64,000 bases of DNA from the IMG/VR virus record IMGVR_UViG_3300032116_000144; one strand, written 5' to 3'. Source of the stretch: a virus. The first letter of the stretch is position 1; each line of letters begins with the position of its first letter. The notes beneath the pieces were generated by a model. That model was given only the letters and a program-made list of their open reading frames with translations, had not been told where the DNA came from and made no database searches. A program made the translations under genes and the position numbers. Below, one piece after another: positions 2,382 through 51,311 of this stretch.

Positions 2382-3159
2382 ACTTACTTCTGTTTCTACT
2401 ATTTTAAACAAAGTACAAAGAACATTTAGACCACCTGATTCAAGTTGGATTGGTGATGCTATTGAGGATATTGGTTTAGCTATTCAAGCTATTGGTTATC
2501 ATGCTGGATTTGAACATAAACAAACAGAACCACCTTATATTAAAGTAACTAATAATAGAGCAAAAGTTCCGTGTCATGTAGAGCGTATTAAAGTAATAGA
2601 ACAACTGTTACCTGATGCTTTTTCAGAAAGAAATCTACTTAATCCCGACGGCACTACTCCTTTTCCTCAAGTAGAATATAATCCTGACTGTACTTATCGT
2701 GGTGTAAAAATGTTTTTAGGTTCTGATCAAACAGGATATGGATTTGCAGAAGACAATCCAAGGACAACAGGTATTTCTCCTGGTGCTCCTTATTATAATT
2801 TAGATGGAGACTATATTTATACATCATTTACAGAAGGATTGATTAAATTACATTATGTAGGTTTTGCCTTAGATAAAAATGGTTATCCTCGTATTCTTGA
2901 TGATGCTGATTATAAAATGGCAGTTGAGTGGTATGTAGTTTATAATATGCTTTTAAAAGGATTTAAACACCCTGATCTTTCTTGGAAAGATGCATATCAA
3001 ATGTGGGAAACTTATAGACTTCGTGCAGAAAATGCTCCTAAAATGCCTAGCATTGATGCAGCCGAAAGATTTAGAAATACTTGGAGTCGATTTGCAATAG
3101 GTAATGAGTGGGGTCAAGAGTTTTTTATGAATTTAGAACAACCTTCAAATATTGAATAA
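2365..3159 (+). CDS. Hypothetical virion structural protein
   Basis: 264 aa. Stop TAA overlaps the ATG of the 1264-aa gene (TAATG). Confidence 0.5.
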   Translation: MPHIHKLTSVSTILNKVQRTFRPPDSSWIGDAIEDIGLAIQAIGYHAGFEHKQTEPPYIKVTNNRAKVPCHVERIKVIEQLLPDAFSERNLLNPDGTTPFPQVEYNPDCTYRGVKMFLGSDQTGYGFAEDNPRTTGISPGAPYYNLDGDYIYTSFTEGLIKLHYVGFALDKNGYPRILDDADYKMAVEWYVVYNMLLKGFKHPDLSWKDAYQMWETYRLRAENAPKMPSIDAAERFRNTWSRFAIGNEWGQEFFMNLEQPSNIE

Positions 3160-9038: not shown

Positions 9039-11050
9039 TGTCATTACCTAATTTTAATATTAACCCATATATACAACCATATATGGGTAATGTTAATAAA
9101 GAATTAAATGAATTAATTACGCAAAGACGTAATGATTATGAAGTTGCTGCGGAAACAGCAGATGTATTAGGTTATCAAACAGACACTCTAAAACAGAGTG
9201 TCGCTCCATTTGAACCAGACTCATATTATGCAGAGGAATTAATGGGTAAGTATCGTGGTCAAATAGATCAATGGTCTGAAAGAGGAGATTATGAAAATCT
9301 TGGTAGAGAAGTAAAGAAAGCGAGTAGACAATTTGCTCAAGAAATTACTCCCTTAATGCAACGTAAAAAAGCTTATGGAGATTATAAAGCCTCATTACAA
9401 GAGCGTTATGAGAAAGGAGAAATTAAATCAGACGTTTATCAAGCAGCATTAAATAAGACAAAGGCAGATAATTCTGCTATGACTAGAGATCAGGTATTAC
9501 AAGGTCAATTTAGTGGTTTTGTACCTTCTAAAAGTGTAGACGTATCAAAGATGCTTGACGATGCCATTAAAGGAATGGAATCTCAAGGAAAAGTAGGTAA
9601 AATTCAAAATAATGGTGATGGTACCTATACTATTGTAGGTGGTGAATATAGAACAATGCAAGATATTCAACAAGCTGCAATGCGATATTTAGAAGGTTCT
9701 TCTGAATTTAAAAGCTATACTCAGACTATGAATGTTCTTGGTCTCGGAGAACAATTAAATAAAGAAATTTTAGCTGGTGTAGCATACGTTGCTGGAGAAA
9801 TTAATCCCAGAACAAATCAACCTATAGGTGGTAAATACAGATTCCTTAAAGATAAATCTCAACAACAAGTTTATCCAGAGTGGATGTATGATAGAATGAC
9901 TCCTGTTGGTTCTTCTTTAGCCATTCAAGATATATCTAGTAAAAATCTTCATGCTAAAGATAAGTATGAAGATTTAAATTACGTAGACGGAAAATTTGTT
10001 TATGGTAATTATATAGGAAATGTTAGTACACCGGAAGGTACCAAGAGAGGATATTATTATAATGAGAAAACAGAGGATAAGCTTAGTCCTCAAGCATATA
10101 TTAATAAAACACAGGAACCTTTGACAAAACAAATAGCCGAAGGTGCAGATAATAGTGCAGTTAATTATAAGTTTAGAGAAGCTTCTAGTGTTGAAGAAGA
10201 AGAAATTCAAAATAAACATATCACTAACTTAACTAATGATAGTAAAAAGCAATTTTTAGTTCAACAAGTTACTGATAATAAAGTTCCAGAACAGTGGTTA
10301 AATGATCCTCAAAAGTATCAAAAACAAATTGATGATTATTTAAGAATTAATGAGCCTCGATGGAATAATCCTGAATATATGAAACAAACTTTAGAGAATC
10401 ATAAAGATGCTGTTAAAAATGCAGCAGTTATGAATGATAATAGAGTTTGGACTCCGATTGAAACTAGAGCTTCTATGAAGCGTAAAGGAGAAGAATTAAA
10501 TATTCCTAATATTATTAGAACTATTGGAGGTAGAGATGTTTTTGAATTAGGTGCTGATAAAGAATCTAAACGAGAAGGTGTAGTAGATATTTCTTCGTTT
10601 TTGGAAGAAACTCAAAAAGATGGAAAACTAGTAGATGTAACATATAATGGTCTTGCACAAATTAATCCTATTAGTGGTAGACCAGGACAGCGTTACGATT
10701 TTATATATCAAGATAAGGATGGTAAAACATTTAAAAGAAGTGTAATTGTTCCTGTTGAAGATAGTGCATTACAACCTATGCAAGATGTAATGAGTGCTGC
10801 AATGGCAGGTAATTCTACACAAATTAAAGCAGATAACGTTTATATTCCTTCTGTTGGAAAGAATATGAATTTGACGTTTGATGTAATAAGTGTTCCTAAT
10901 CCTGATAAAGCTATGAGAAAATCAGTACCTTTTGTTGGTTATGTAGTTATTACTGACGCAGCAGGAATGAAAGTAGCAAAGACTCTTAGTAGTTTTCCAG
11001 AATATTATAAGAGTCTTGTTCCATTAGAAGTAGAAAAATATCTAAAATAA
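9038..11050 (+). CDS. Hypothetical virion (ejection/internal) protein
   Basis: 670 aa, TAATG coupling upstream. Lies immediately upstream of the giant ORF in the same operon. Confidence 0.5.
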   Translation: MSLPNFNINPYIQPYMGNVNKELNELITQRRNDYEVAAETADVLGYQTDTLKQSVAPFEPDSYYAEELMGKYRGQIDQWSERGDYENLGREVKKASRQFAQEITPLMQRKKAYGDYKASLQERYEKGEIKSDVYQAALNKTKADNSAMTRDQVLQGQFSGFVPSKSVDVSKMLDDAIKGMESQGKVGKIQNNGDGTYTIVGGEYRTMQDIQQAAMRYLEGSSEFKSYTQTMNVLGLGEQLNKEILAGVAYVAGEINPRTNQPIGGKYRFLKDKSQQQVYPEWMYDRMTPVGSSLAIQDISSKNLHAKDKYEDLNYVDGKFVYGNYIGNVSTPEGTKRGYYYNEKTEDKLSPQAYINKTQEPLTKQIAEGADNSAVNYKFREASSVEEEEIQNKHITNLTNDSKKQFLVQQVTDNKVPEQWLNDPQKYQKQIDDYLRINEPRWNNPEYMKQTLENHKDAVKNAAVMNDNRVWTPIETRASMKRKGEELNIPNIIRTIGGRDVFELGADKESKREGVVDISSFLEETQKDGKLVDVTYNGLAQINPISGRPGQRYDFIYQDKDGKTFKRSVIVPVEDSALQPMQDVMSAAMAGNSTQIKADNVYIPSVGKNMNLTFDVISVPNPDKAMRKSVPFVGYVVITDAAGMKVAKTLSSFPEYYKSLVPLEVEKYLK

Positions 11051-11051
11051 C

Positions 11052-14000
11052 ATGAGCAATATTAATCCTTTTCTCAGTTCTGGTAAAGAAACTGAAGAAT
11101 TTAATCCATTTCGTTATAAGGCAGATATTAATCCTAGATCACCTATAGGTGGTTTAAGAATGACTTCTGATTCTCGTTTTTTACAAGGATTAACAACTGA
11201 TTCTAATCCTAATGATGTAAAAGCAGCTAATCAAGGATTTTGGAGTGAATTAGGTAATAGTTTAGTTAATTTTGGTGGAGAAGTTGTATTAGGAGCAGTA
11301 GAAGGTGCAGGATATTTAAATCCACTTCAACTTATTACTACTGCTTTTGATTCTGAGAAACAGTTTGGTAATGTTATATCAGAGTGGGCAGCAAAAAAGA
11401 ATGAAGAACTCCAACAAGATATGTTTCCTGTATATAATAATACAGAGACAGCAGATGTAAGTGAGTGGTTTTTTGAAAATTTTTCTTCTATTGGTAGTGC
11501 AATTTCATTAATGATTCCTGCAATGGCTGGAACTAAAGCTTTAGGTGCAACAGCTAGAGCAATGAGAGGACATAAATTGTTAAAAGCTATTGGAGTTGCA
11601 GAAGGAAGTCCAGTTTTTAATACAGCTACTGCGGGCTTAGAAACCATTACAATGGCTGGTATGTCACGTCATGCTGAAAACATGATGGAGGCAACAGAAA
11701 CATACAATACTATTCTTGAAGAAGCTAAACAAAAAGGATTTAGTGATGATTTAGCAAAACAAGCAGCAAAAGAAGCTGCTAAATCTGTTTATAATAAAAA
11801 TTGGACACTGATTATGAATGATCTTGTTCAATTTGGTATGATTAACAAAGGTTGGTCTACTTATTCTAGAAAAGGGAAGGAGTTGGCTTTATCTAATGCT
11901 AATAAATCTACTGCAAAATCTATTCTTACTCAAATGGGTATTGAAGGAGCAGAAGAAGGTTATCAGTTTATTACAGCTGAAGAACAAGCAAGAGAAGTTG
12001 CTCAAAAATATGGTATTCGTGAAAAAGATTATTTATCTTATCCTGAAAGATTAGCTAAATATGCAACTGATGAAAACTTTTTAACTTCTGTTTTCTTTGG
12101 TGCATTAGGTGGTGGTGTATTTGAAGTAGCTGGTACAGCTATTAATAATAAATTTGCAAAACAACAACAAATAGCTAATGAATTACGTGATACAGAATAT
12201 CAAAAACAATTAGCTGTATTTGAAGGAGATAAAAAGAAATTTTTAAAAATTGAACAGGAAGAATCTTATAGATTTATCTTTGAATTATTAGAACAAGGAA
12301 GAGCAGATCATGCAGAATCTTTGTTTCAAATGATGGTTGATACTAAACCAGCTGATGACATTTCGCAAGAAGAAGCAAAAGAAATTAATGCTAAAGGACA
12401 ATGGGGATTAGAACAATTAAAAGGGTTTGAATCTTACTTTAATACCGTTAGAAAAAATAATACTGGAGAAACAATGAGATTTTTACTTGCAAATAAAGCA
12501 GGTAGAAATATTAAACGTGCTTCTTTAGATTTAAGACAACAAGAGGTTAATAAAGAATTAGGCAGACTAACAGAAGATTTTAAATTAACTTCTGATCTTA
12601 CTAAAGTATTAGAACTTAGTAAAGACATTGAATCGCTGGAAGCTTTAAAACCAGAAGATTTAGGTATTGATAAAGAAATTAAAGATAATCTACTTAAAGA
12701 AAAGAAAGATAGTTATGCTTTATTTTTAGAAACTGTTAAAACGAATCAAAGTTTAACAGAAGATCAAGTTAAAGAAAAGTTAAATCAGGTAGATACTTCT
12801 CTTTTAACACAAAATACATTCTTAAAAAGTGTTGAAGAACTACAACTTGCACAACTGAATAAAGACGCAACACTGGCTAGTAATCCTGCAAAAATTCAGG
12901 ATAAAGTTAATACTTTACGGGAAGAAACTCAAAATAAAGAATTACTTACATTAACTAAAAAGATTAATAAAAATACTACTGAAGAAGAGCTAGTTCAATT
13001 AAAAGAAGCAGCTAAAATTATTAATAAAGATAAAGAATTTAAAGAAGCTTTAGCTGTTAAAGTTAAAGAAATACAAGCTACAGCTTCAAAGATTGATGAA
13101 GTAAATTTAGAGGCTTCATTAAAAACACGCTGGACGGATAACTCTCTTTTAAAAGCTAAAGAAGTACAAGAAATTACTAACTTGGCTATACTAAATGGTG
13201 GTATTCCTGAAAATACTGTTGTTGATGAAAAGTATATAGCAGAACGGTATAATAGTGATCCTGTATTTAAAACTAAGCTTAATAATTACTTTAAGCAATC
13301 TAATTCTGTTGTAAGTGTTACTAAAATAGATCTTAAAAAAGAACCGACTAACTCTGATGGTGTAGATGTTAATATTAAAACAAAAGAAACAACTACACAA
13401 CAGAATACAGTTGGCTACCCTACTAACCCGTGGAAAACAGCTAGTCTTGAGTTTAAATATGAGAATGGTTCATTTACAGAAACAGAAAACGGACTAGTTT
13501 TAAATACTTCTTCGTTAAGTCAAAAGATAAATTGGGGAGCGTTAAATAGAGGAGAAATCCCCGTTGGTTCTACTTTATATTATGAATATGATTTTAACGA
13601 TTCTTTTAATAAAGGTACCATTAAAGGATTTGAAAAAATAGATGCAAATAATGCTCAAATAGAAATTGTTTATTATAAAGATAATAATAAAACAGAGACT
13701 AACAGAGTTATTCTAGGTGCTGTTCCTATATGGACTGAAACTAAAAATTTTGGTAGTAAAGATAATTCAAATAATCTTAAAGCTTTTAAAGAAAAGTTGT
13801 GGAGTGAGGTTTTAAATACTACTAATAAGATTGGTCGTATTACTCTTACACCAACTACTAAATTAAAAAGTTATGAATCTGGTCCTATTCATAACTTACG
13901 TCAAGATAGTAAGCCATTAGAACAAAATCCTTTAGATATTATAGGAAATAATAAATTGGTACTTGCTATTGGTCGTCAAAAAACCAATGGTCAAGCTTAT

Positions 14001-17000
14001 CTTGATTTTGGTGACGTTAATCATCCTTATGTTAATAAGGTAACTGCACAAAAAAATGTAGAAAAAGGTGCTGTTTATATGATGATACCTGATAAATCAG
14101 GTAATATACTACCAATTAAGATATTTAATAAAACTCTTAATACTTTTCCTGATTTACTTGCAGAAGTAAGATCAATGGCTCTTTCATTTAAAGAAATTAC
14201 AGATGCCACACAAAGAAGAGAAGCAGTTGATAGAATTTCTGATATTGTTTCTATTAGTGATTTATATTATAGTCCTAACACTCAGTCTTATAATTTAGTT
14301 CTAACTGATAATAAAACTAAGACTATTAAAACTTTTACAGAGGAAAATGCTGTTGAAGTTCTAGGTCAACTCCGTGTTCAAATTGATGTAAATAAAATTA
14401 ATAGAACAGTGAATGGCGAAGCTTACAATAGTACTGTTTCTAAAAACGGATATATTGTAACAGATTTACATCCAGATTATTTTCACTCTACTAGAGTAAT
14501 TGTTGAACCTTACATTCCTGAAGTTGTTAAAGATGCTCCTATTTCAGAAGCTAAAACAACAGTTGAACATTCTAATATTGCAGGATTAAACGAAAAATTT
14601 TCTTTAAATGATGTAGATTTTGGAATTACGTCTATTGATTTAGGAGATATTGGGAAGTTTAAAGAAGCTACAGATGGAGATAATTATACTCCTTTAAATG
14701 AAGGAGAAATTCGTGCTTGGTTTGAAAAGAATTTACCACAAGTTCCAGTAGAAATTATTCCTCATTTAATTGAGATTAAGAAAAACGGTGGATATGCTTG
14801 GGGTATGTTTAAAGATGCGGCAATTATTTTATATAACGCAGCACCTAATAAAATAGCTTATCACGAAGCATTTCACGCTGTATTTAATCTATTTTTATCA
14901 CCAAAAGAAAGAGAAGCTATTTTAAATGAAGCTTCTATAAGATATGGTATTCCTAGAAGTTTTGATTCTGTAGATACTATTGCAAGATATAATGCTGTTG
15001 ATTTTCAACTAAAATCAGTTAATATTCTTTCATCTGATAAAGCTATTGAATGGTTTAAAAAGAGAGATAAAGGACAATGGAAAGGAGAACAATTTTGGCA
15101 AAAATTACAACAAGATTTACAAATACCTAAAGAACAAATAGAGTTACTTAAATCTTTAAGTGTAGAAAATCCTTATAATAGAGAAGAAATACTTACTTCT
15201 TTATTAGCTAATTATAGTTATACTGTTGAGATTAATACTGCGTTTGGTCCAGAAGCTCAAAAACAATTAGATGATGGAGGAGAAGGATTTATTTCAAATG
15301 GTGTAACTTATATAGTTGAGCAAGGGTATAATCGTCCTGAATATTTAAAAATAATAAATGGTGAACCTGTAAGTATTACAATAGAAGAATTTGAGCAAGC
15401 TAAAAAAGATTCTATTGTAAAAGAACCTACTAATATTTACGGTAAGGGTGGAATTAATTTAGTAGCTTCTCGTAATAATCCTAGAGAAGCAGAAATGTAT
15501 AGATCTGAGGATGGTTGGGTATATCAGGAATTAAAAATTAATACCCCTTTGATTACACCTTCTATAAAAGCCCACGCTTCTTTTGCTGATGATAATACTA
15601 TTGGTTGGATAAGATTGTATTACAATACAATTACTAAAGTTGTAGAAATACAAGAAATACAATCTGATTTGTTTCAGAAAGGTAGGGATAAGAAAAGTTT
15701 AGCTTTACAAGAATTACTAGACGTTGATTTTTCTAGCGATACTCCTAAAGAAATTTATTCAGGAGAACAAGAAAATCAATTTCTCCAACTTCTGAATAAA
15801 GACAACAACTGGGTTACATTCTTTATTAAATCTATTATTCAAGATAGTGCTAAGAAAGGTTATGAAAAGGTATTATTCCCTTCAGGTAATACAGCTAGTA
15901 AAGTTGAAGGTCACACTACTTTAGAAGAGTTTAAAAAGCAGAAAGAAGATAGGATTAAAGTTCTCGAACAAGAATTTTTTGATTACACTATTGAACAAGA
16001 TACAGATGGTAGATTTTATGTTGTAAATAATGTAGGTGAAAAAGGTGTTAGTTATAGTAAAAGAGAAAGAGCAGAAGAATTTATTGACAAAATTAAAAAA
16101 GATAGAGTTAAAACTCGTGAAGAAATAAACCAACTTAAACAAGAACTTGAAAGAGTAGAAAAAGAAGGGTTTGGTGCTTTAAAACCTATTTATAATTTCT
16201 ATGAGAATACTGTAGCTAATATTCTTAAAAAACAAGGATATAATCCTGTATTAATTACTGATGAATATGGTAATACTTGGCAGGAAATTACTTTAACTGA
16301 ACAACAAAAACAAGAAATAATTAGACTATCTTCTTTAGACAAATCTGTTTATAATACTAATGATTTAAAATTAGAAGAAAAACTAGCAGATGAGTTTATG
16401 GAGTATGTCCAAGAGGACGGTGCTAATGCAGATTCTTTATCTTACAATATACGACAGTTTTTTAGAAAATTATGGACTGCAATTAAATCAGTATTTAACA
16501 AAGTAGATATTGATACATTAATGTATCGAATTAATACTGGTTATTATAAAGATAAGCAACTTCCTGTTAAAAACACATCTCCCAAATATAAAGTTATAGA
16601 AGATCCTATTGTAGCTAGAAAGCGCGTAGCTATGATTAATTATCAGTTTTTTAAAGCTTTAGATAATTATAGAGCAAAAAATCCTAATTTTGAAGGATTA
16701 TCTGATACTAAACTTATTGAAAAAATTGGTAAGAACGATTATAAATTAGGTTTAATTACAGTATATGGCTCTATTCTAAATGGTCTTCGCCAAGCAGAAT
16801 TTAAATTACCTAATACTGACCCTAGAAAAGCTAAATTACAAAATCTGATTAATCAGTTTTTTGTAGAGAATCAAGATAAAGAAATTAGTGATGTTGATGG
16901 ATATTTTGGAAAAGCATTAGCTGATCTTAGACGCTATGGATTAAAGTATACACCAGAAGGTGAGACTAATGAACAAGTATTAGAAGATATAAATAATACT

Positions 17001-20000
17001 AGTTTTGAAGAGCTGTATGAAGAAGAGAATTTTGATACTATTCATGATAAAAGTAGATTAACAGAAAATCCTAAAGATAACTTTTCATATGATGTTCGTA
17101 AGTTTTTACGTAAACTAGAAAAATATAGTATTGTTAATGGAGAATTTGTTAAAGGAACCAGTGAAACTAATGATGATTTAGGATTTACTAGTTTTGCAAA
17201 TTACGATGAAATTGTAAATTTCTTATTTAATAATTTAGCTGATGTTAATACAACAAATGAAATGATCGCAAAACTTCAGGAGTTACAATATAAACGTCCT
17301 GAATTAAGAGATGTTGTTGTTAAGGCTTTAGCAGATGAACAGTTTAAAACTAAATTATTTGTTGCTTTTAACAAAGCGTATACTCCATTTTTAAAAGTAA
17401 TTCGTAATATTAAAGAACTAGAATTTGGTAATGAAATTAGCATGAGAGTATTTAATGCTAATAGAAAAAATATAAAACAGTTAATTATTGACGAATGGAA
17501 TACAAATTTAAAAAATTCAGCAGGCAATAATATAACTAAAAATGGTGAAATTGATACGGTAAAAGCAAAACAATATTTTGATGAGTATCAGAAAATAGTA
17601 GAAGCTATTAGAAAATCACGTAATATTACACAAGAACAAGCTAATCAACTTAGCACACTATTAGAAAATTTTGGCATCACTATCTCTCCTAAAGTATTTA
17701 TAAATGAGTTTATAGAAAGACCCACTTATTATAGTACTGAAGGACTTACAGCTGTTGAAAATTTATATAATTTTATAGGCGGACCTCGTTCTTTAACTAC
17801 TATTTTAACTTCTATTACAGCAAGTATTAATCCTTATGAAGGAGACACAGCCGAATCATCTTCTCTTATAAGCGTATCTACAACTGTTGCTTCAAATAGT
17901 CTTCAATTACATTTAGATTCTGTAATTAACATTGAAGGTGAACAAGTATATAGTTACGCACTTCCTACTTTCTTATCTAATTTAATTACTGATTTAAAGA
18001 AAAATAATAATAGAAAACAATTACTAGAAAACTGGTGGTTTAAATCTAATGCTTTTTTAAATGATTTAGATAAAGAAGAAAATTATGAATTAAGAGAGAA
18101 TTTTAGTCTAGCTATTCTTAATGGAATTAATTTATTTGACACTAATAAAGGTACGGCATTTAGTAAAATGACAGAAAAAGATTTAGCAATATCAGATATT
18201 GCTTTGTTTAATTCTGGAAAATTTGCATATTACAGAGTACCAATTCTTTCTGATAGTCCTACTTCACCTACTATTAGATTTAAAAAATATACTAAGCAAG
18301 AAATAGTAGATAACTTATATCAAGTAGCTTTAGCAGAAAAAGAAAGAATTGAAAAAGTAGATACTTATAAAGAATTAGGTATTAAACATTGGGAAACTAG
18401 AGGTAAAGAATATCAGTTTTTAACTATCTTTAACGATCCTAATATAGATATTAATAATATAAAAGCTGCTAAAGAAGCTATTACTAATTGGTTAAATGAA
18501 GAATTTAAAATAGAACTAGATCGTTTAACTACATTAGAAGTAATAAAAGGAGATCAAACTTCGTTTTTTGTAACTAGTAATGGTAATTTAGTAGATAATT
18601 TAAAAGATTATTTTTATAATAAAGTTCACGCTAATGTTAATATTATTCAATTAACATCTATTGATCTATCTTTCTATAAAGATTCTATTACATTTCAAAA
18701 ACGTAATGGTCAAATTTATAAATTAACAGATAGACTAGATACTACTGCTGTTTGGAAAGATGGTACTGGTGTTGGACAATATTATAAAAGTATTTATTTA
18801 AAAGATGTTAAAGAAGATACAGAACTATTTAAAAATGTAAATGTTACAGATGCTCAATCATTTATTCGTTTAAATAGATATAAAAACATAATGATTGGTA
18901 TTGGTAAATGGACAGATCAACACGAATCTACTTATCAAAAAGCACAGAAAGGAGCATGGAGTACAGGATTTTCTAATTTTCTACCATCTTCTATAAAGCC
19001 TTTTGCATTTACACACGAAAATATAGATGGTACTGATATAATTATACCAGTACAGCATAAAAACAGCCAAGCATTACTTACGCCAGCTATGGCTAAAGAA
19101 AATCCAGTATTAAAAAAATTACTGGATTACATGGATGCTAATAATATTGATGAAATTCAATTTGCAGACTCTGCTGTTAAAGTAGGAGAATACGGTGCAG
19201 TAACAGTAGAAGAATTTTTAAAAGGTGCAAAACCAGTTATTCACATCTTAAATAATAAGGATTATGGTATTCAGCAAAGAGTACCAGCTAAACATTTAGA
19301 TATTGAAGTATTACTTGGAACTCAGTTTAAGAAATTAGCTTTATCTGAAATTCCTGATAATATTGAAATTATGGGTATGAATAAACAAGAATTATTCAAA
19401 ACCTATCAAAAACTATTAACAGATAATATTATAGAATCTTATAATACTCTATCTGGTGAATTTCAGACCATTGAAAGTGTTCAAAAATTGCTATTAGAAC
19501 AAGTTAGAGATCGTGGTCTAAGTGAGTCTTATGCCGAAGCTTTAAAAATTGTAATTGATCAAGAAGGTAATAAAATATTTAATATTCCTCTATTTGATCC
19601 TATTCATGGTAGAAGAACACAAAATATTTTAAATGCTGTTATTCGTAATAATGTTACAAAACAAAAAATTGCTGGTGCTTCTCTTACTTTGGTTTCTAGT
19701 TGGGGATTAGATAAGAAATTAAAAATAGTAAAAAATAAAGAAGGTGGAGTAGAGTATATGGAAGTAATGCTTCCTGCTTATACTCGTAAGTTTTTTGAAT
19801 TAAAAGATAAGAAAGGTGAAGTAGATATTGAACAGCTTCAAAAAGAATCTCCAGAAGTATTAGAATTAATAGGCTATCGTATTCCCACAGAAGGATGGTA
19901 CTCTATTAAAAAAATGAAAATTGTAGGATTTACTCCCGATATTATGGGTAGTGTTGCTTTACTACCTTATGATATTACTACTATTGCTGGTGAAGACTTC

Positions 20001-23000
20001 GATATTGATAAAATTTACACTATTCTTCCTACTCTAGAAGAAGTAAATTGGAAGTTAAGAAAAGTAAAATATAATTTAGATAAACCTGAAACTTTATCTA
20101 AAGTTCAGAGAGATAATGCATTATTAGATATTATAAACAGTATATATTCTCATCCTGATATGTCGAGTAAAGTATTAACTCCAGGTGGATTTGATACTTT
20201 AAAAACTCTACATAATGAAATAAGAGATTCTTATGGAGCGTTGATACGTCAAGATAATATTATATTACCAAGAACAGAAAGTAAATATTTTGATATCAAT
20301 AGTAATGGTGGGAATTTAATTGGTCTTGCTGCTAATCACAATAGTAGTCATGCTCTTACTCAATATTCTAAACTTGGTTTAACACAATCAATTAGTTTTG
20401 ACGGAGAAAGAAGATCTTCTTTACATACTACGGAAACAACAGAGCAAGGAAGATCAGTAGGTCAAAACTTAGCAGAATTTTTAGGTGCGTTTGTAGATAC
20501 AGCAAAAGACCCCGTAGCAACTGGTTTAAATCTTAACTTATTTACTTTTGATAGTGTTGCTTTAATTATACGTGCTGGATTTAGTTTAAAAACAGCGATG
20601 TATTTTATTAATCAATCTATCTTAAAAAATCTAGTTAATCAATATAATAATCAAAATAAGTCAGAAGCAAAAGTTGATAAGATTGTAACAGATTTACGGC
20701 AACAACTTACAAAAATTATTGGAGATTATCCTAAATCTAAAATGTATGATTTAAGTACAAAAGAATTAGGAAAATCTTTTGTGAGTCTTGCTAATATTCC
20801 TGATCCTACTGCAAAACGTAAAGCAGCACTATTACAAGCTAAAGTTTTAGAAACTTTCTTAGAATTAAGAAAAACAGGCAAACAATTATCTGCTTTAATT
20901 AAAGCTTCAAAAGCAGATACTAATGGTGTAGGTAAAACTCTTGCAGAAAATACTCATTTTTTAGAAAGTGTTGGTAATGTAAGTAAACTAAAATCTTTAA
21001 CTGGAATTGATTCAGTTTTAAATATTCCTTTAATTGATATATCTATTGAATACGGTGTTAAAAAACCACAAGAGGAGATACTATCTAGATATTTTCCTTA
21101 TAATGGAAAACTATTTAAGACATTAGTTAATGTTTTAGAAAATAATAAAGGTCAAGAATTAACAGCAGATGAAATAAATTATGTATTTAATAACTTTATT
21201 CATTTTTATATAAGTGATTTTAGTTTCTTTGATGAGACTAAAAAATTATATTATATAAATGAATACCCTGCTAAATTTGTAGCATTAAAGAAAAAATATC
21301 CTGAATTAGAATTGATTAAATATCTTGCTGTTAAAAGTAAGAGTTCGTTTAATAACCTACAAAGAATTGAGTTTACTTCTGCTGCTACTATTAGTAATGA
21401 GCAGATAGAGCGATTACAAGATGCTTGGGAATCTATGTTAGGTTCTGATAATGTAGAGATTAAAGGAATGGCCAATGATTTATTAAACTATGCTTTTTTT
21501 ACTACATATTTAGGATTTAAATATACTGGATTTTCTCATCTAACTCCTATTAATTTCTTAGAAAACCTAAGAAATAAAGAGGATGTTTCTTATCGAGATT
21601 TTGTATATAGATTACAAAATGAAAAAGATAGTACGCATTTAATTGCAAATTATTTAGATCAAATATATAGACATAAAAGTACTTATAATACTTTACTTCA
21701 AACTTTGAAAAAAGAAGATGTAACTGTAACAAAAAAGAATAAAGGTGGTTTTGTTACTAGTATGAAATTTGACGAAGCTAAAAGTAGAAGTTTAGGTATT
21801 TATGATGAAGAAGGGAAAGTAATACGTAATCGGTTTTTATACGAAAATAGTAACGGTATCACCTATACTTTTAAATATAGTGGAACTACTAAAAATAATG
21901 AAACTGTATTTAATATTCAGGAAAATCTAGGATATGAAAACCATATTGTAGAGTTTGATAAATTAAATCCTGCTGAAACAAATATACCTTCTAACAAAAT
22001 CAAATCTATTAATGCTGACAGCTACTTCGATGTAGATTATGATTATACAACTTTATATTCTTTAGAAAATTCTCAACAAAACGTTAAGAAAGCAGATGAA
22101 AATCTTAATAATATATTAAAAACATTTGCTAGTTCTTTAGGAATTAAAGTAGAAGCACACGAAAATCTTAAATCTAGATTAGGTATAGATGCTGCTGGTG
22201 CTGCGGATATTTACAATAAACTTATTCTTATTTCACAAAATAAAGAAAATGTAAATACTCTTCCTGAAGAAATTGGACACTTTGCAGAAGCATTTACTAG
22301 AGGAACATCTTTTCACGATAGTTTAATGGGTTTAGTTCAAAATACTGCCGAGTATAAAGAAGTAGTAAATGAATATGGAGAGATTTATGCTGGAGATATA
22401 ACTACTTTAAAAAGAGAAACGATTGGTAAACTTATAGGAAAAGCTATTGTTAAGCGGTATAATGAAACTAGAAAAAACACTAATAACGTAGTACTTCAAT
22501 TCTTAGAAGCTTTATGGAACAGATTTATTGGTATTTTTAGAAAAGTAGATATAGCTGATTTTAATAAAGAAGTAAATAGTATTACAGAATATATTGCAGA
22601 ACAAATATTAGCTGGTAATACCAATATATTTACTAACAGAAATATTAAAATTGGAGAGGTATTTTATAAGTTAAGTTCTGAAAAAGACATTAACGATAAT
22701 ATAGAAACTCTTAAACTTGGTATTGATTCTATTTTTAAGAAATTATCTTTATATGAAAGAAAAGCTGGTAGTACCTACTTACAAAGAGAAAAAGACATTT
22801 TTGACAAATTAATAAAAGATCTTAATAAAGAGAAATATGAGTTAGGTTTATTAAGATATTTAGCTAATGCACGAATTGAATTGGATACAGTTGCAAAACG
22901 ATATAATCAAATCGGTGAAATTATTAAAAATGGAATACCTGAAACTTTAGAAGAAAAAAGAGAATTAATTAATACTCTTCGTTCTGCACAAAATTATGTT

Positions 23001-25739
23001 TTAGGTTTTGAAAGTACATTAGAAAAATTAGCAACAGATAAACCTTTTACGAATAATAGTATTAATGTTAAAGCTAGTGATACCTATGTGACTACTCAAG
23101 CTTTAAAAAATAATTATTTAAAATTAGGTAAAACACTTCTTGCTGATATATTTAAGTCTTTTTCATCTAATCCTAAATTAAAACAGGATATGGAAAAAGC
23201 ACTAGAAGTATTAGAAAAAGATATTTCTTTTACTCAACGAGGTTTAGATGCTTTAGCTGAATCCGGTGATCCTATTTTAAAAATTATTGATATTATTGTT
23301 AAAGACTCATTAAATAATTATAGAGTACCATTACTAGAAAAAGCAAAATCTATAGTAGATATGCAGCAGGAATTAGAAAAAGCTGGTATTAAATCTACTA
23401 ATTGGATGTATGAAAGAGATTTTGCAGGCAATCTTTCAGGTAGAATGATTAGTAAGTGGAATGTTGCTGAATATAATAAAGCAAAATCTGCCTTTTTTAA
23501 GTCTATTGGACCAAAACCAGAAGATGCATTTAAACAAAGAGAGTGGAATAGAAAAGTAGCAGAGTGGTTTAGTATTAATACTCAAGTAAATCCTAATTAT
23601 AAAGAAGTTTTAGAAAATAAGAAAAAGGAATTTATTACACGATATGGTCAACGTATTGGTATAAGGGAGTATAATGCCTGGGTTGCTAAAAATAGTACAG
23701 AAATATATAATCCTGAAAGTGGAGAGCGTGAACTTAGATATATTAAAGAACTTGCTGTTCCTTCTGATAAGTATTTAAGCCGTCAATTTGCAGAGATTGA
23801 AAATAATCCAGCACTTAAAGCTTATTATGATAAATATACTAATTTATTAAAAGAAGTAGAATCTCAATTACCTGAAGCATATAAACTATTTGGTTATATG
23901 CCACAAGTAAGAAAAGATTTCTTTGAAAGATTAGCTTTTGTAGATAAAAATGGAGAAAGAACTCTTAAATCTCCTAAAGATTATTTAAACGAAGGTAAGG
24001 AAACTATACTGGAAGCTTTTAAAAAGCAAGCTGGTGATGATATAGAGTTTGGATTAACAAAACTTACAGATGAAAAAGGTAATCCTGTAAATTTTGTACC
24101 TATGTTCTATACTAGACCTATTGATCCTACACAATTATCTACTGATGCAAGTTCTTCATTAATTGCTTTAGTTAACTCAGCTTATAACTATCAGGCTATT
24201 AGTAAAGTAGTAGATATGGTGGAACTATCTAAAGATATTCTTATTGAAAGAGAAATATTAACAGGTACTTTTGATCCTATTACTTACTTTAAAAAAGAAG
24301 GAGAAAAAGGTAAACAAATTACTATTAAAGGTGAAAATAGTAAAGCATTTGCACGTTATCAAGATTATATGGAAATGGTAATTTATGGTAATGAAAAGAA
24401 AGATGAAAAATTTGCAAAGCTTGCAGATACTTTAAATAAATATACATCTTTATCTTCTCTTGCTTTGAACGTTTATGCAGGTGTTGCTAACTTAGCTTAT
24501 GGTAATATAATGACTAGAATGGAAGCATTTGCTGGAGAACTTATTACTAATAAAGATTTATTAGAAGCAGATAAAATTTATTTAAGTGAATTACCTAGTA
24601 CTTTAAAAGATATTGGTGCTAGAAATGTATCTAATAAATTAAGCTTATGGAGTGAATATCATAATACACTGCAAGACTACAATAGAGAATTAAGAGACGC
24701 AAATACTGGTAGAACAAATTGGTTCTCTAGAATGTTTACTCAATCTAGTTTATACTTTATGAATAGAAGTGGTGAACATTATATGCAGCTTAAATCTTCT
24801 TTAGCACTTGCTCAAAGAATAAAAGTAAAAGATACTGAAGGAAATATAATGACTCTTTGGGAAGCTTATGATGTTGTAAATGTGGGAACAGAGGAAAATC
24901 CATCTTATAGACTTAAATTAAAAGAAGGATTGACAAAGGTAGGAGGAGAAAAAGCAACTGATTTATTTAAGAAAGAAGAAAACGGTAAGCCATTGACTCA
25001 AAAAGATGTTAATAGATTTATTAACAGACAAAACTTCTTAAATAAGAGATTACATGGTATCTATAATGATATAGATAAAGCAGCAGTTCATAGATATGCT
25101 ATAGGACGAATGGGTTTATTATTTAGAAAATGGATGAAACCAGGGTGGAACAGACGATTTGAAAAACTTACTTATAATGAGGAAGGGGAAATTTATACAG
25201 AAGGATATTACACAACACTGTGGAGAGTGTTAAAACGTTCTATTCTAGAATTGACAGAACTTAAAGATACTTTAGGAACTACTGACGAAACTATAAAAGC
25301 AGTAGAAAAAGCTAATTTAATCCGTGTTGCCACAGAATTTAGTTTTATGCTTGCTACAGCAGCAATAGCTTCTTTAGCTACTGCATATGCAGATGATGAA
25401 GATAATTGGGTAGCAGCATTTATTGCTTACGAAGCATTGAGAATACATTCTGAATTGCAGTTTTATAGTAACCCTCAAGAAGCTATACGTCTTGCACGTA
25501 GTCCTCTTCCTGCAATTCGTCAAATTGAAAAGTTACAAAGATTAATAGAAGTTTGGAATTGGAACGATGAAATGGAGAAAGGAAAGTACAAGGGATTAAA
25601 GAATTATGAGATTATAGGTATTGAATTAGTACCTTTTGCTGGTACTTACTACAATGCTAGAACTCCTGAAGAGCAATTAAAGTTTTTTAGTAATAATCCT
25701 CCAGTACTTGTGTCGTTAACTAACACTATAATAGAATAA
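11052..25739 (+). CDS. Giant 4895-aa virion protein; candidate fused ejection protein / virion-packaged RNA polymerase (two-barrel, DxDxD type) with a zincin-like HExxH segment
   Basis: Single stop-free frame of 14,688 nt, with consistent A-rich coding bias throughout. HEAFH (HExxH) at residues 1271-1275 (nt 14862..14876). DFDID at residues 2982-2986 (nt 19995..20009), resembling the DxDGD catalytic loop of crAss-like virion RNAPs / QDE-1-type polymerases. N-terminal Gly/Ala-rich hydrophobic stretches and long K/E coiled-coil regions. Confidence 0.6.
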   Translation: MSNINPFLSSGKETEEFNPFRYKADINPRSPIGGLRMTSDSRFLQGLTTDSNPNDVKAANQGFWSELGNSLVNFGGEVVLGAVEGAGYLNPLQLITTAFDSEKQFGNVISEWAAKKNEELQQDMFPVYNNTETADVSEWFFENFSSIGSAISLMIPAMAGTKALGATARAMRGHKLLKAIGVAEGSPVFNTATAGLETITMAGMSRHAENMMEATETYNTILEEAKQKGFSDDLAKQAAKEAAKSVYNKNWTLIMNDLVQFGMINKGWSTYSRKGKELALSNANKSTAKSILTQMGIEGAEEGYQFITAEEQAREVAQKYGIREKDYLSYPERLAKYATDENFLTSVFFGALGGGVFEVAGTAINNKFAKQQQIANELRDTEYQKQLAVFEGDKKKFLKIEQEESYRFIFELLEQGRADHAESLFQMMVDTKPADDISQEEAKEINAKGQWGLEQLKGFESYFNTVRKNNTGETMRFLLANKAGRNIKRASLDLRQQEVNKELGRLTEDFKLTSDLTKVLELSKDIESLEALKPEDLGIDKEIKDNLLKEKKDSYALFLETVKTNQSLTEDQVKEKLNQVDTSLLTQNTFLKSVEELQLAQLNKDATLASNPAKIQDKVNTLREETQNKELLTLTKKINKNTTEEELVQLKEAAKIINKDKEFKEALAVKVKEIQATASKIDEVNLEASLKTRWTDNSLLKAKEVQEITNLAILNGGIPENTVVDEKYIAERYNSDPVFKTKLNNYFKQSNSVVSVTKIDLKKEPTNSDGVDVNIKTKETTTQQNTVGYPTNPWKTASLEFKYENGSFTETENGLVLNTSSLSQKINWGALNRGEIPVGSTLYYEYDFNDSFNKGTIKGFEKIDANNAQIEIVYYKDNNKTETNRVILGAVPIWTETKNFGSKDNSNNLKAFKEKLWSEVLNTTNKIGRITLTPTTKLKSYESGPIHNLRQDSKPLEQNPLDIIGNNKLVLAIGRQKTNGQAYLDFGDVNHPYVNKVTAQKNVEKGAVYMMIPDKSGNILPIKIFNKTLNTFPDLLAEVRSMALSFKEITDATQRREAVDRISDIVSISDLYYSPNTQSYNLVLTDNKTKTIKTFTEENAVEVLGQLRVQIDVNKINRTVNGEAYNSTVSKNGYIVTDLHPDYFHSTRVIVEPYIPEVVKDAPISEAKTTVEHSNIAGLNEKFSLNDVDFGITSIDLGDIGKFKEATDGDNYTPLNEGEIRAWFEKNLPQVPVEIIPHLIEIKKNGGYAWGMFKDAAIILYNAAPNKIAYHEAFHAVFNLFLSPKEREAILNEASIRYGIPRSFDSVDTIARYNAVDFQLKSVNILSSDKAIEWFKKRDKGQWKGEQFWQKLQQDLQIPKEQIELLKSLSVENPYNREEILTSLLANYSYTVEINTAFGPEAQKQLDDGGEGFISNGVTYIVEQGYNRPEYLKIINGEPVSITIEEFEQAKKDSIVKEPTNIYGKGGINLVASRNNPREAEMYRSEDGWVYQELKINTPLITPSIKAHASFADDNTIGWIRLYYNTITKVVEIQEIQSDLFQKGRDKKSLALQELLDVDFSSDTPKEIYSGEQENQFLQLLNKDNNWVTFFIKSIIQDSAKKGYEKVLFPSGNTASKVEGHTTLEEFKKQKEDRIKVLEQEFFDYTIEQDTDGRFYVVNNVGEKGVSYSKRERAEEFIDKIKKDRVKTREEINQLKQELERVEKEGFGALKPIYNFYENTVANILKKQGYNPVLITDEYGNTWQEITLTEQQKQEIIRLSSLDKSVYNTNDLKLEEKLADEFMEYVQEDGANADSLSYNIRQFFRKLWTAIKSVFNKVDIDTLMYRINTGYYKDKQLPVKNTSPKYKVIEDPIVARKRVAMINYQFFKALDNYRAKNPNFEGLSDTKLIEKIGKNDYKLGLITVYGSILNGLRQAEFKLPNTDPRKAKLQNLINQFFVENQDKEISDVDGYFGKALADLRRYGLKYTPEGETNEQVLEDINNTSFEELYEEENFDTIHDKSRLTENPKDNFSYDVRKFLRKLEKYSIVNGEFVKGTSETNDDLGFTSFANYDEIVNFLFNNLADVNTTNEMIAKLQELQYKRPELRDVVVKALADEQFKTKLFVAFNKAYTPFLKVIRNIKELEFGNEISMRVFNANRKNIKQLIIDEWNTNLKNSAGNNITKNGEIDTVKAKQYFDEYQKIVEAIRKSRNITQEQANQLSTLLENFGITISPKVFINEFIERPTYYSTEGLTAVENLYNFIGGPRSLTTILTSITASINPYEGDTAESSSLISVSTTVASNSLQLHLDSVINIEGEQVYSYALPTFLSNLITDLKKNNNRKQLLENWWFKSNAFLNDLDKEENYELRENFSLAILNGINLFDTNKGTAFSKMTEKDLAISDIALFNSGKFAYYRVPILSDSPTSPTIRFKKYTKQEIVDNLYQVALAEKERIEKVDTYKELGIKHWETRGKEYQFLTIFNDPNIDINNIKAAKEAITNWLNEEFKIELDRLTTLEVIKGDQTSFFVTSNGNLVDNLKDYFYNKVHANVNIIQLTSIDLSFYKDSITFQKRNGQIYKLTDRLDTTAVWKDGTGVGQYYKSIYLKDVKEDTELFKNVNVTDAQSFIRLNRYKNIMIGIGKWTDQHESTYQKAQKGAWSTGFSNFLPSSIKPFAFTHENIDGTDIIIPVQHKNSQALLTPAMAKENPVLKKLLDYMDANNIDEIQFADSAVKVGEYGAVTVEEFLKGAKPVIHILNNKDYGIQQRVPAKHLDIEVLLGTQFKKLALSEIPDNIEIMGMNKQELFKTYQKLLTDNIIESYNTLSGEFQTIESVQKLLLEQVRDRGLSESYAEALKIVIDQEGNKIFNIPLFDPIHGRRTQNILNAVIRNNVTKQKIAGASLTLVSSWGLDKKLKIVKNKEGGVEYMEVMLPAYTRKFFELKDKKGEVDIEQLQKESPEVLELIGYRIPTEGWYSIKKMKIVGFTPDIMGSVALLPYDITTIAGEDFDIDKIYTILPTLEEVNWKLRKVKYNLDKPETLSKVQRDNALLDIINSIYSHPDMSSKVLTPGGFDTLKTLHNEIRDSYGALIRQDNIILPRTESKYFDINSNGGNLIGLAANHNSSHALTQYSKLGLTQSISFDGERRSSLHTTETTEQGRSVGQNLAEFLGAFVDTAKDPVATGLNLNLFTFDSVALIIRAGFSLKTAMYFINQSILKNLVNQYNNQNKSEAKVDKIVTDLRQQLTKIIGDYPKSKMYDLSTKELGKSFVSLANIPDPTAKRKAALLQAKVLETFLELRKTGKQLSALIKASKADTNGVGKTLAENTHFLESVGNVSKLKSLTGIDSVLNIPLIDISIEYGVKKPQEEILSRYFPYNGKLFKTLVNVLENNKGQELTADEINYVFNNFIHFYISDFSFFDETKKLYYINEYPAKFVALKKKYPELELIKYLAVKSKSSFNNLQRIEFTSAATISNEQIERLQDAWESMLGSDNVEIKGMANDLLNYAFFTTYLGFKYTGFSHLTPINFLENLRNKEDVSYRDFVYRLQNEKDSTHLIANYLDQIYRHKSTYNTLLQTLKKEDVTVTKKNKGGFVTSMKFDEAKSRSLGIYDEEGKVIRNRFLYENSNGITYTFKYSGTTKNNETVFNIQENLGYENHIVEFDKLNPAETNIPSNKIKSINADSYFDVDYDYTTLYSLENSQQNVKKADENLNNILKTFASSLGIKVEAHENLKSRLGIDAAGAADIYNKLILISQNKENVNTLPEEIGHFAEAFTRGTSFHDSLMGLVQNTAEYKEVVNEYGEIYAGDITTLKRETIGKLIGKAIVKRYNETRKNTNNVVLQFLEALWNRFIGIFRKVDIADFNKEVNSITEYIAEQILAGNTNIFTNRNIKIGEVFYKLSSEKDINDNIETLKLGIDSIFKKLSLYERKAGSTYLQREKDIFDKLIKDLNKEKYELGLLRYLANARIELDTVAKRYNQIGEIIKNGIPETLEEKRELINTLRSAQNYVLGFESTLEKLATDKPFTNNSINVKASDTYVTTQALKNNYLKLGKTLLADIFKSFSSNPKLKQDMEKALEVLEKDISFTQRGLDALAESGDPILKIIDIIVKDSLNNYRVPLLEKAKSIVDMQQELEKAGIKSTNWMYERDFAGNLSGRMISKWNVAEYNKAKSAFFKSIGPKPEDAFKQREWNRKVAEWFSINTQVNPNYKEVLENKKKEFITRYGQRIGIREYNAWVAKNSTEIYNPESGERELRYIKELAVPSDKYLSRQFAEIENNPALKAYYDKYTNLLKEVESQLPEAYKLFGYMPQVRKDFFERLAFVDKNGERTLKSPKDYLNEGKETILEAFKKQAGDDIEFGLTKLTDEKGNPVNFVPMFYTRPIDPTQLSTDASSSLIALVNSAYNYQAISKVVDMVELSKDILIEREILTGTFDPITYFKKEGEKGKQITIKGENSKAFARYQDYMEMVIYGNEKKDEKFAKLADTLNKYTSLSSLALNVYAGVANLAYGNIMTRMEAFAGELITNKDLLEADKIYLSELPSTLKDIGARNVSNKLSLWSEYHNTLQDYNRELRDANTGRTNWFSRMFTQSSLYFMNRSGEHYMQLKSSLALAQRIKVKDTEGNIMTLWEAYDVVNVGTEENPSYRLKLKEGLTKVGGEKATDLFKKEENGKPLTQKDVNRFINRQNFLNKRLHGIYNDIDKAAVHRYAIGRMGLLFRKWMKPGWNRRFEKLTYNEEGEIYTEGYYTTLWRVLKRSILELTELKDTLGTTDETIKAVEKANLIRVATEFSFMLATAAIASLATAYADDEDNWVAAFIAYEALRIHSELQFYSNPQEAIRLARSPLPAIRQIEKLQRLIEVWNWNDEMEKGKYKGLKNYEIIGIELVPFAGTYYNARTPEEQLKFFSNNPPVLVSLTNTIIE

Positions 25740-25740: not shown

Positions 25741-27078
25741 ATGTCTCAAATTAATGTTAAATTACGAACTAAATTTTATGATTTTTACGATGAAGTTAGA
25801 GGAGAATTTGAAACAGATAATGATTGTATTAAAGCTTTTATAATTAAAGAAAAAGAAGAAGGTAATCAAACATTTACTATTTCTTTATATAAAAAGTATT
25901 TAAAAACCAAAAGTGTAATAAAAACACGTAATACAGCACCTCAAATTACTTTGGGTGAAAATGGAAGAGAAATTTTTGAAAATGAGAATACTAGAGAACT
26001 TAAAGCTAAGACAGAAAAACCTATTACTTCTTTAAAAGAAGCTTTAGATTACTTTGAAGTAGATACTAAAATTTGGAAAGTAGTATCCTGGAATTGTAAG
26101 TCTTGGGATACTTCAATGAAAATAGAAAAAATAAAAGATGGTAAAATAGTACACACTCCCGTAAAAAAGACTAACTATTTAGTAAATGTTCAGCTTGTAA
26201 AGAAAGAAAACGAGATTGATTATCAAAAGATATATAAAATTGTGAATCAATTTGTTAAAAATGATAAGATAAATATTGTTAAGACAGAAAATTTTAATGC
26301 GGGAGTTGTTGCTTTAGCTGATATTCATGCTGGACTAAAAATAGAGAAATTTACTAAACATACACAAGAATACAATGTTCGTAAATTAACAGAATATCTT
26401 ACAGAAATAGTTACTAAAACAAATCAACTCGGATTTAAAGAAGTACACGTTGTAATATTGGGAGATTTGGTAGAGTCTGTAACTGGCTATAATAAAATAG
26501 AGACTCTTAAAGAAATGGAGTTTGGAATGACAGGCGGAAATCTTATTATTGCAGCATATGAATTACTGCATAAGATGTTGTCTTCTATAAATAATTTAAA
26601 ACACGTCTATATGGTTAGTGGTAATCATGATAGACTAACTCCAGAAAAACCTATGGATAAAGATGGTGGAGCAGCACAAATTGTAGCTTATATGTTAAGC
26701 AAAACAGTACCTACAACTTGGCATCCTTTTATCATTAATACTGAAATTGATAATATCTGCTATATTCTAAATCATGGAGATCATAAAATAGCAAAACAAG
26801 ATTTAGGTAAAGTAGTTTTTGAATATGGAGATCAAAGTAAGTACAATGTATTCTTGACCGCGCATTTACATATACGTAAAAGTACAAAAATTTTTCAGGA
26901 AAAGAATACAATACTTAGTGACACAAACAAATATAGGGCTGTAACTGTGGCTCCTATCGTTACAGGAAACAGATGGGCAGAGGAAAATGGTTACAGTTGT
27001 TCACCAGGATTTTCTATATTTGTGGCTAATTCTAGTAGAAATAATGTGCATCATTTTGATTTTGCGCTGAGTCGCTAA
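25741..27078 (+). CDS. Calcineurin-like metallophosphoesterase
   Basis: 445 aa. Motifs ADIHAG (DxH), GDLVES (GDxxD), GNHD, HLHI in canonical order. Starts 1 nt after the giant ORF stop. Confidence 0.65.
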   Translation: MSQINVKLRTKFYDFYDEVRGEFETDNDCIKAFIIKEKEEGNQTFTISLYKKYLKTKSVIKTRNTAPQITLGENGREIFENENTRELKAKTEKPITSLKEALDYFEVDTKIWKVVSWNCKSWDTSMKIEKIKDGKIVHTPVKKTNYLVNVQLVKKENEIDYQKIYKIVNQFVKNDKINIVKTENFNAGVVALADIHAGLKIEKFTKHTQEYNVRKLTEYLTEIVTKTNQLGFKEVHVVILGDLVESVTGYNKIETLKEMEFGMTGGNLIIAAYELLHKMLSSINNLKHVYMVSGNHDRLTPEKPMDKDGGAAQIVAYMLSKTVPTTWHPFIINTEIDNICYILNHGDHKIAKQDLGKVVFEYGDQSKYNVFLTAHLHIRKSTKIFQEKNTILSDTNKYRAVTVAPIVTGNRWAEENGYSCSPGFSIFVANSSRNNVHHFDFALSR

Positions 27079-27128: not shown

Positions 27129-27164
27129 AAAATGGTCTTGCAATTTGTGTTGCAAGACCATTTT
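27129..27164. terminator. Bidirectional rho-independent terminator between convergent + and - gene blocks
   Basis: Perfect 15-bp inverted repeat aaaatggtcttgcaa / ttgcaagaccatttt with 6-nt loop, A/T runs on both sides. Located exactly where + strand and - strand transcription converge. Confidence 0.7.
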
Positions 27165-51207: not shown

Positions 51208-51292
51208 TACCATTGAGAGGAATCGAACCTCCACGTTCTTAACGAACAACAGATTTTAAGTCTGTCTTGTCTACCAGTTCCAACACAATGGC
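51208..51292 (-). tRNA. tRNA-Leu (anticodon UAA), type II with long variable arm
   Basis: Reverse complement gives acceptor GCCATTG/CAATGGT. D-loop AACTGGTAGA. Anticodon stem ACAGA/TCTGT with loop CTTAAAA (U33, UAA, A37). Variable hairpin GTTC-GTTAA-GAAC. T-arm GGAGG-TTCGATT-CCTCT. Discriminator A, no encoded CCA. Confidence 0.8.
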
Positions 51293-51311
51293 CCAGTGTT
51301 CAACTTATTAG

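Follow-up and report, generated by a model that had tools for sequence, protein, structure and literature searches.

The Cellulophaga phage phi14:2 packages an RNA polymerase (RNAP), gp66, in its virion and uses it to transcribe early genes (Drobysheva et al.), and each aspartate of the gp66 loop 1361-DFDID-1365 has been shown experimentally to be required for RNA synthesis. Orthologues of gp66 and of its two neighbours are virion components, and fused forms of these proteins have been described as 'likely cleaved into individual components' (Drobysheva et al.); a 2023 review mentions RNAP genes of 'up to ~6000 aa'. In the Bacteroides phage crAss001, virion mass spectrometry detected gp45, gp46, gp47, gp49 and gp50 as cargo, which has been modelled as capsid-stored and ejected partly unfolded. 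Here we describe a 64,000-nucleotide stretch of viral DNA (IMG/VR record IMGVR_UViG_3300032116_000144, hereafter the window) in which one open reading frame (ORF) at 11052..25739 (+) encodes, from an ATG start, a protein of 4895 aa and ~560 kDa. With a probability of about 0.88, we take this giant ORF to be the complete transcription and cargo cassette of a crAss-like (Crassvirales-type) podophage, made as one ~560-kDa polypeptide. The fused form and the idea of a role for its zincin are already in print, and the giant ORF is a divergent further case. Its 14,688 nt make up 22.9% of the window; a first-pass annotation had reported the frame as uninterrupted, with HEAFH at residues 1271-1275 and DFDID at residues 2982-2986, and the ORF listing, the translation and coordinate checks confirm the frame and place both motifs exactly there. 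The same annotation had set the ORF at the end of a translationally coupled structural operon, downstream of ORFs of 1264, 694 and 670 aa, and the junction sequences agree.

The central module is best supported as a crAss-type single-chain two-barrel DNA-dependent RNAP with DFDID as its predicted catalytic loop. A phmmer search against all PDB sequences returned a sole match, 6vr4_A, which is the phi14:2 gp66 virion RNAP (E=3e-25), in an alignment that spans query residues 2519-2998 and 3020-3300 and covers both barrel regions. In this alignment AGEDFDIDKIY of the window falls on GSDFDIDKMY of 6VR4, that is, on gp66 residues 1361-1365, with isoleucine at position 4 of the motif; DFDID of the window (19995..20009, +) is thus the predicted Mg2+-binding catalytic motif. 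Modelled with AlphaFold from a 44-sequence alignment, residues 2496-3541 (18537..21674, +) are predicted to form an RNAP core of two double-psi beta-barrels, a connector and downstream helical domains (pLDDT 83.4, pTM 0.82). When this core was submitted to Foldseek, 6vr4_A was the top match (E=5e-35, TMq 0.76), followed by eleven QDE-1 chains (E=1e-5 to 6e-4) and then by multisubunit RNAP large subunits with non-significant E values. The context of the module is that of a cargo polymerase, beside gp47-like and gp49-like sequences where the structural/cargo operon ends, and the scanned ORFs of the window showed no further RNAP candidate.

Comparison with crAss001 places the polymerase between two further modules. 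Residues 1150-1299, HEAFH included, match residues 2046-2185 of crAss001 gp47, its zincin part; residues 2009-3541 match the RNAP gp50 (blastp E=1e-118), and residues 3648-4879 match gp49 (blastp E=7e-142). The N-terminal end is covered by residues 56-403, which match the N-termini of crAss002 gp32 and p-crAssphage gp45 in tblastn and blastp searches. The giant ORF thus unites, by homology, gp47-like, gp50-like and gp49-like sequences, in that order, in one collinear fusion. The N-module (residues 1-1300; 11052..14951, +) is a gp47-like 'RNAP-associated protein fused to zincin', with homology to crAss002 gp32, p-crAssphage gp45, crAss001 gp47 and IMG/VR relatives (blastp and tblastn); it has a conserved N-terminal region (residues ~30-400), a helix-rich region and, by hydropathy, a Gly-rich hydrophobic segment at residues 343-364. 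The RNAP module, with approximate ends at residues ~1926-3640 (16827..21971, +), is assigned by homology to crAss001 gp50 and phi14:2 gp66, and the mostly helical C-module (residues ~3641-4895; 21972..25736, +) by homology to crAss001 gp49 and phi14:2 gp076. Protein homologues exist for every segment of the giant ORF, which indicates that its whole length is coding. A tblastn search of 50,697 phage records matched crAss-like phages only (107 records, all below 60% identity). The first-pass annotation had suggested, as one of two possibilities, a natural fusion of three large cargo proteins, and its components can now be named as homologues of crAss001 gp47, gp50 and gp49; it had also compared DFDID with the catalytic loop of the crAss-type two-barrel RNAP, a comparison that the 6VR4 alignment and the predicted fold uphold. 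Double-psi barrels around the motif, whose absence it had named as grounds for giving up the idea, are present in the model, with 6VR4 and then QDE-1 as the structural matches.

The closest described systems share these modules and distribute them differently. The phi14:2 cassette resembles the window in its aligned DFDID, its two-barrel single-chain fold and its order of N-module, RNAP and C-module at the end of a structural operon, but it is made as three proteins (GenBank gp078, gp077 and gp076; 1797 + 2180 + 1421 aa) rather than as one 4895-aa chain, its boundary termini carry cysteines where the window chain has none, and identity is ~25-27%. In crAss001, gp47, gp50 and gp49 all have homologues in the giant ORF, and the sequence context of the HEAFH zincin is identical in type, but the three are separate genes, with gp47 convergent with gp50-gp49, and together they amount to 6102 aa, so that the window ORF is the shorter. 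Relative to crAss001 it also carries an additional insert of ~450 aa. A partial fusion is found in the Intestiviridae crAss002 (gp32 + gp33) and p-crAssphage (gp45 + gp44), in which the RNAP is joined to the C-module and the N-module carries the zincin; crAss002 gp33 is 4245 aa long, and p-crAssphage gp44 is annotated as 'RNAP catalytic subunit fused to unknown RNAP subunit'. Unlike in the window, the N-module is still a separate gene there, with a terminal cysteine, the next protein starts MSC, and identity to the window is 22-26%. Beyond crAss-like phages, the polyvalent proteins of Iyer et al. (2017), N4 vRNAP among them, offer a likeness in their combination of a giant virion-delivered RNAP with an MPTase domain and host-directed modules, although the window polymerase is two-barrel and not T7-like, and the family of its insert matches no Pfam model. 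QDE-1 has the same single-chain two-barrel architecture and is the second-best structural match (E ~1e-5), but with a TM-score of only ~0.24, an identity of ~9-12% and no virion context.

Our homologue searches show that the three-way fusion recurs in other assemblies. When residues 3100-4299, across the RNAP/C-module junction, were the query of an exhaustive HMMER search, 1.84 billion representative proteins yielded 967 matches, the best of which are giants of 4432-5227 aa; a word-indexed search gave no protein of ~1830 aa or more and was unable to show fusions. The 1200-aa junction query matches the closest giants in one unbroken stretch (58% identity in P0241, 45% in P0242 and 46% in P0243). 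All 12 giants retrieved (P0241-P0271), which come from other assemblies and are ~25-60% identical, are collinear with the window ORF; a match to the N-module was not detectable in P0258 and was short only in P0271. These relatives resemble the window protein in being three-module single ORFs with a DFDxD motif, kept in 12 of 12, and with no cysteine at all. The closest relative found, P0241, lies in a separate Logan assembly (L089, 1176-16349), and its neighbours are those of the window: a cargo-like ORF upstream, a 445-aa Metallophos ORF downstream and a convergent MazG gene. Given 12 collinear fused homologues and the synteny of P0241, the three-way fusion is, as judged from sequence comparison, a state conserved throughout the clade rather than an artefact.

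Among 80 IMG/VR relatives, most have an RNAP ORF of ~2400 aa and a separate gp49-like ORF of ~1350 aa. The six nearest (L005, L007, L008, L009, L059 and L080; 28-35% identity) have N-module and RNAP fused in ORFs of 3249-4464 aa, with the gp49-like gene separate, and the complete three-way fusion was found in none of the 80. Relative to split relatives, crAss001 included, the window ORF is missing ~250 residues at the RNAP/C-module junction, namely the RNAP's C-terminal tail together with the leader, 'M-x-x-x-C...', that opens the next protein, and we infer that the fusion arose by deletion at this junction. The junction regions themselves (~residues 1900-2000 and 3640-3665) are poorly conserved, and no conserved cleavage motif was identified at them.

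The fused and split forms also differ in their cysteines. The giant ORF has none, where ~57 would be expected from the 1.16% mean cysteine content of the other window ORFs (P ~1e-25), and the 12 fused relatives, ~56,000 residues together, have none either. The 694-aa and 670-aa ORFs upstream are likewise free of cysteine; the muzzle homologue has 11, and the 445-aa Metallophos ORF, with four, lies outside the cysteine-free cargo signature. In split relatives, cysteines are nearly confined to the termini that flank gene boundaries (L005-L084, L001, L003, L004 and L088). Of RNAP-containing ORFs with a complete N-terminus, 69 of 73 have a cysteine within residues 2-8, the four exceptions being those fused to the N-module, and 73 of 74 RNAP-containing ORFs have one in the last 10 residues. 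The gp49-like ORFs start with M-x(1-3)-C in 66 of 70 cases and have a C-terminal cysteine in none (0/67), and convergent gp47-like ORFs have a cysteine at the end in 59 of 59 cases, with one other cysteine in 97,800 residues. For instance, in phi14:2 the cysteines are C1797 of 1797 residues in the N-module, C3 and C2179 of 2180 in the RNAP and C3 in the C-module; in crAss001 they are C2339 of 2341 in gp47, C5 and C2404 of 2412 in gp50 and C5 in gp49. In p-crAssphage, gp45 ends '...SFSCM' and gp44 starts 'MSC...', and in crAss002, gp32 ends '...SFVCS' and gp33 has an internal 'MSC' at residues 33-35. At loci with N-module and RNAP fused, no cysteine was seen at or near the fused junction. The literature on these phages that was searched yielded no mention of cargo-protein cysteines, and the absence of cysteine from all 13 fused proteins, together with boundary cysteines in split ones, seems to be new.

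It is tempting to speculate that in crAss-like phages the cassette is delivered as one thread, with split products joined head to tail by their terminal cysteines and the fused clade joined by peptide bonds; we offer this tentatively, as an idea somewhat less probable than its negation. The pairs so tethered would be the C-terminus of the N-module with the N-terminus of the RNAP, and the C-terminus of the RNAP with the N-terminus of the C-module. The simplest tether would be a disulfide that forms within the virion and is reduced on arrival in the cytoplasm, or perhaps another thiol link is used; inter-subunit disulfides are present in crAss001 virions. The general avoidance of cysteine would reflect passage in an unfolded state, and its complete absence from the window protein fits a protein that travels unfolded and has no need for the terminal cysteines of its split relatives. 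Two other explanations for the terminal cysteines were considered and rejected: inteins or trans-splicing, for which no intein-like boundary sequence was noticed, no formal search having been made, and a lipoprotein signal, given that the cysteines stand at residues 3-6 without a signal peptide.

The HEAFH region fits, in sequence, the description of a zincin-type HExxH...E domain, the MPTase of polyvalent proteins being an HExxH helix plus a Glu helix (Iyer et al. 2017). HEAFH (14862..14876, +) would form the HExxH helix, and LEEKLADEF at residues 1774-1782 (16371..16397, +) the second helix with the predicted third-ligand Glu; the full pattern, AWGxF...GTxYHEAFHxVF...[LI]EExLA[DE]xF, is conserved in an alignment of the window, six relatives and crAss001 gp47. 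Pfam gave no match for the zincin region at E<=5, and GenBank labels p-crAssphage gp45 'RNAP associated protein fused to zincin protease'. HExxH is kept in all split and fused relatives examined save P0245, which has HEAFE, and hence in 11 of the 12 fused ones. In phi14:2 the only HExxH found is HEIMH in gp076, whereas the window has HEAFH in its N-module and LPEEIGH at the gp076-equivalent place (residues 3737-3743; 22260-22280, +), aligned with HEIMH. Most relatives have EExxH at the LPEEIGH position and P0252 has LPHEVGH; possibly this is another zincin-like site, degenerate in most of them.

The two zincin helices are 503 aa apart in the window, versus 35-64 in most relatives, and between them the alignment places an effector-type insert of ~450 aa (residues ~1301-1752; 14952..16307, +) without counterpart in the nearest IMG/VR relatives. 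The insert has no Pfam match, and the PDB, searched by sequence and by profile, held nothing meaningful. Protein homologues number more than 250 (best E=6e-101; 40-70% identity over conserved blocks), most of them stand-alone proteins of 300-800 aa and some fused to Zeta-toxin/AAA_33, PDDEXK, His_Phos or ART-PolyVal domains; by these homologues the insert belongs to a widespread family of polyvalent-protein modules. Its model is of medium confidence (pLDDT 71.7, pTM 0.46), and from this the core is tentatively called GNAT-like; GNAT and ART domains are among the typical modules of polyvalent proteins (Iyer et al. 2017). A member of the same insert family occupies the zincin loop of the fused relative P0250, and P0241 has two ART-PolyVal ADP-ribosyltransferase domains there (Pfam E=1.3e-26); among the other fused relatives the loop holds short inserts in P0245 and P0247 and none in most. 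Since the contents of the loop differ in this way among relatives, the zincin loop appears to be an exchangeable slot for effector-type domains, in line with the general description of polyvalent proteins (Iyer et al. 2017), and both the ~450-aa module within it and the ART domains of P0241 seem new. The giant ORF as a whole corresponds to a polyvalent protein as defined, being a large chain of unrelated domains with an MPTase hub in a phage late/structural context.

A tblastn search of the insert against 84 loci (80 IMG/VR crAss-like loci and four annotated reference regions) gave no match. Elsewhere, on a 77-kb crAss-like contig (L085, 10001-12200), a module of the insert family makes up the N-terminal part of a gp49-like gene and is, as assembled, split by a stop or frame change. 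Proteins of the insert family start with M-x-C in 97 of 120 cases. As a separate observation, an unrelated 155-kb metagenomic contig (L086, 5036-17258) has small module genes that alternate with GIY-YIG homing-endonuclease genes, in an array that comes after a 5546-aa helicase-domain protein; four of the module proteins (197, 397, 419 and 377 aa) have exactly two cysteines, one being residue 3 and the other the last or penultimate residue.

An alternative to a chain that works whole is that the giant protein is a true polyprotein whose own zincin cuts it into N-module, RNAP and C-module after packaging or ejection. The proposal has precedent, in that Drobysheva et al. considered the fused forms likely to be cleaved and suggested that the zincin might activate the RNAP, and Iyer et al. 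(2017) proposed autoproteolysis by the MPTase domains of polyvalent proteins; both the HExxH and the Glu helix are intact in the window protein. However, phages with three separate genes conserve the zincin to the same degree, and P0245 is fused yet has HEAFE, so that cutting fusion junctions is not its sole role. In addition, N4 vRNAP, which also has an MPTase, is packaged unprocessed (Iyer et al. 2017), and at the poorly conserved junctions no shared cleavage motif was identified. We therefore regard self-cleavage as unlikely, though as a proposal to be taken seriously. That three genes were merged by an error of assembly or sequencing, or that the ORF is a pseudo-fusion of them, might be suspected from the two or three separate genes of most crAss-like relatives, but is extremely improbable in view of the 12 like fusions in other assemblies, the unbroken match of the junction query in the closest of them, the same gene order around P0241 on its separate Logan contig, and the cysteine-free sequence that the fused proteins share, unlike the split ones with their cysteines at the boundaries.

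An enzymatic function is not assigned to ~3000 of the 4895 residues, and this, with the hydrophobic Gly-rich segment in the N-module and the precedent of P23-45 for RNAPs fused to structural proteins, might suggest a mainly structural or ejectosome protein, channel or tape-measure-like, in which DFDID is an inactive relic. We consider this very improbable, as DFDxD is kept in all 12 fused relatives, the confident model of both barrels and of the domains downstream superposes on the active gp66, and a second RNAP candidate was not seen in the window ORFs scanned. An N4-type polyvalent protein with a T7-like single-subunit virion RNAP would share the comparable size, the virion-RNAP logic and the MPTase fusion, but sequence and fold matches are to two-barrel enzymes only, and no T7-like polymerase is among the 50 Foldseek matches listed; the fold search, with 6VR4, QDE-1 and then multisubunit RNAPs, refutes this reading, to which we give virtually no credence. 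Several points also weigh against the reading of the giant ORF as a cargo cassette with a polymerase and an effector-type insert. Pfam and PHROGs scans of the protein, whole and chunked, gave no usable match to any part of it, so that all assignments rest on pairwise homology, motifs or predicted structure; module boundaries are approximate, and packaging, ejection and activity of the window protein itself are proposed by analogy. The tentative GNAT-like call comes from the fold of a medium-confidence model: inspection of the insert-family consensus showed no Q/RxxGxG/A acetyl-CoA loop, the profile search of the insert against the PDB gave no GNAT, and hhalign of the insert against an approximate RimI sequence gave a probability of 0.1%.

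If the cassette works as its counterparts in phi14:2 and crAss001 do, the giant protein would be made late and packed in the cargo zone of the capsid. By the same analogy it would then be extruded through the tail partly unfolded, from N- to C-terminus, ahead of or with the DNA, and would refold in the cytoplasm, where the RNAP module would transcribe early genes without host RNAP. The effector module of the zincin loop would travel along, making the chain a 'polyvalent' delivery vehicle for host-directed enzymes.

The surroundings of the giant ORF are crAss-like in type. Upstream on the plus strand lie the 1264-aa ORF (3159-6953), a homologue of the muzzle or 'stabilization' protein, and the 694-aa (6954-9038) and 670-aa (9038-11050) ORFs, which occupy the place of cargo proteins C1 and C2 (6954-11050, +) by synteny with crAss001 and crAss002; the operon junctions overlap or nearly abut (TAATG, TAAATG, TAATG and TAAcATG). 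One base past the stop of the giant ORF begins the 445-aa Metallophos/exonuclease-like ORF (25741..27078, +; phrog_284 by homology), a position that is kept in P0241. A bidirectional terminator-like hairpin with a perfect 16-bp stem (27129..27164) stands between the convergent plus- and minus-strand gene blocks; GC content is ~27-33% throughout, and GC skew inverts at ~27-28 kb, where these blocks meet. The minus-strand block (27382-62079, -) is a replication and nucleotide-metabolism module of typical crAss-like kind, with genes for MazG, dNMP kinase, Thy1, a primase-like Toprim protein, DnaB, an SNF2-type helicase, an ATP-dependent ligase and a family A DNA polymerase. This block also encodes a transfer-messenger RNA (tmRNA; 51309-51647, -; Rfam RF00023, 102.6 bits, E=5.6e-39), for which ARAGORN gives the tag peptide VGQSEGVQLRVAA*, and an adjoining tRNA-Leu(UAA) (51208-51292, -). 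Internal promoters at the module junctions of the giant ORF were considered and rejected, promoter-like sites being not enriched (72 versus 93 expected). A megablast search of 20 kb against the phage collection gave no DNA match at ~85% or more identity, and scanning IMG/VR and JGI metagenomes for similar loci with single-sequence queries gave no close relatives.

The fused RNAP confirms what is known of Crassvirales in a divergent lineage, the closest protein found being 58% identical. Beyond this, the fused form is a natural Rosetta stone that fixes the order N-module, RNAP, C-module, and the cysteines of the split relatives vanish exactly where peptide bonds take over. This bears on the packing of several proteins of 150-280 kDa and their ordered ejection through a narrow tail, and on how the RNAP is released or activated. 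If the tether idea is true, the pattern 'M-x-C ... C-stop' on small polyvalent-module gene arrays of other large phage contigs would make thiol concatenation a general device for injectable polyproteins. In the same way, the zincin loop would, if the idea of a slot is true, be a plug-in site for host-directed effectors, GNAT-like in the window and ADP-ribosyltransferases in P0241, and such an exchangeable slot suggests co-injection of host-modifying enzymes with the polymerase by crAss-like phages.

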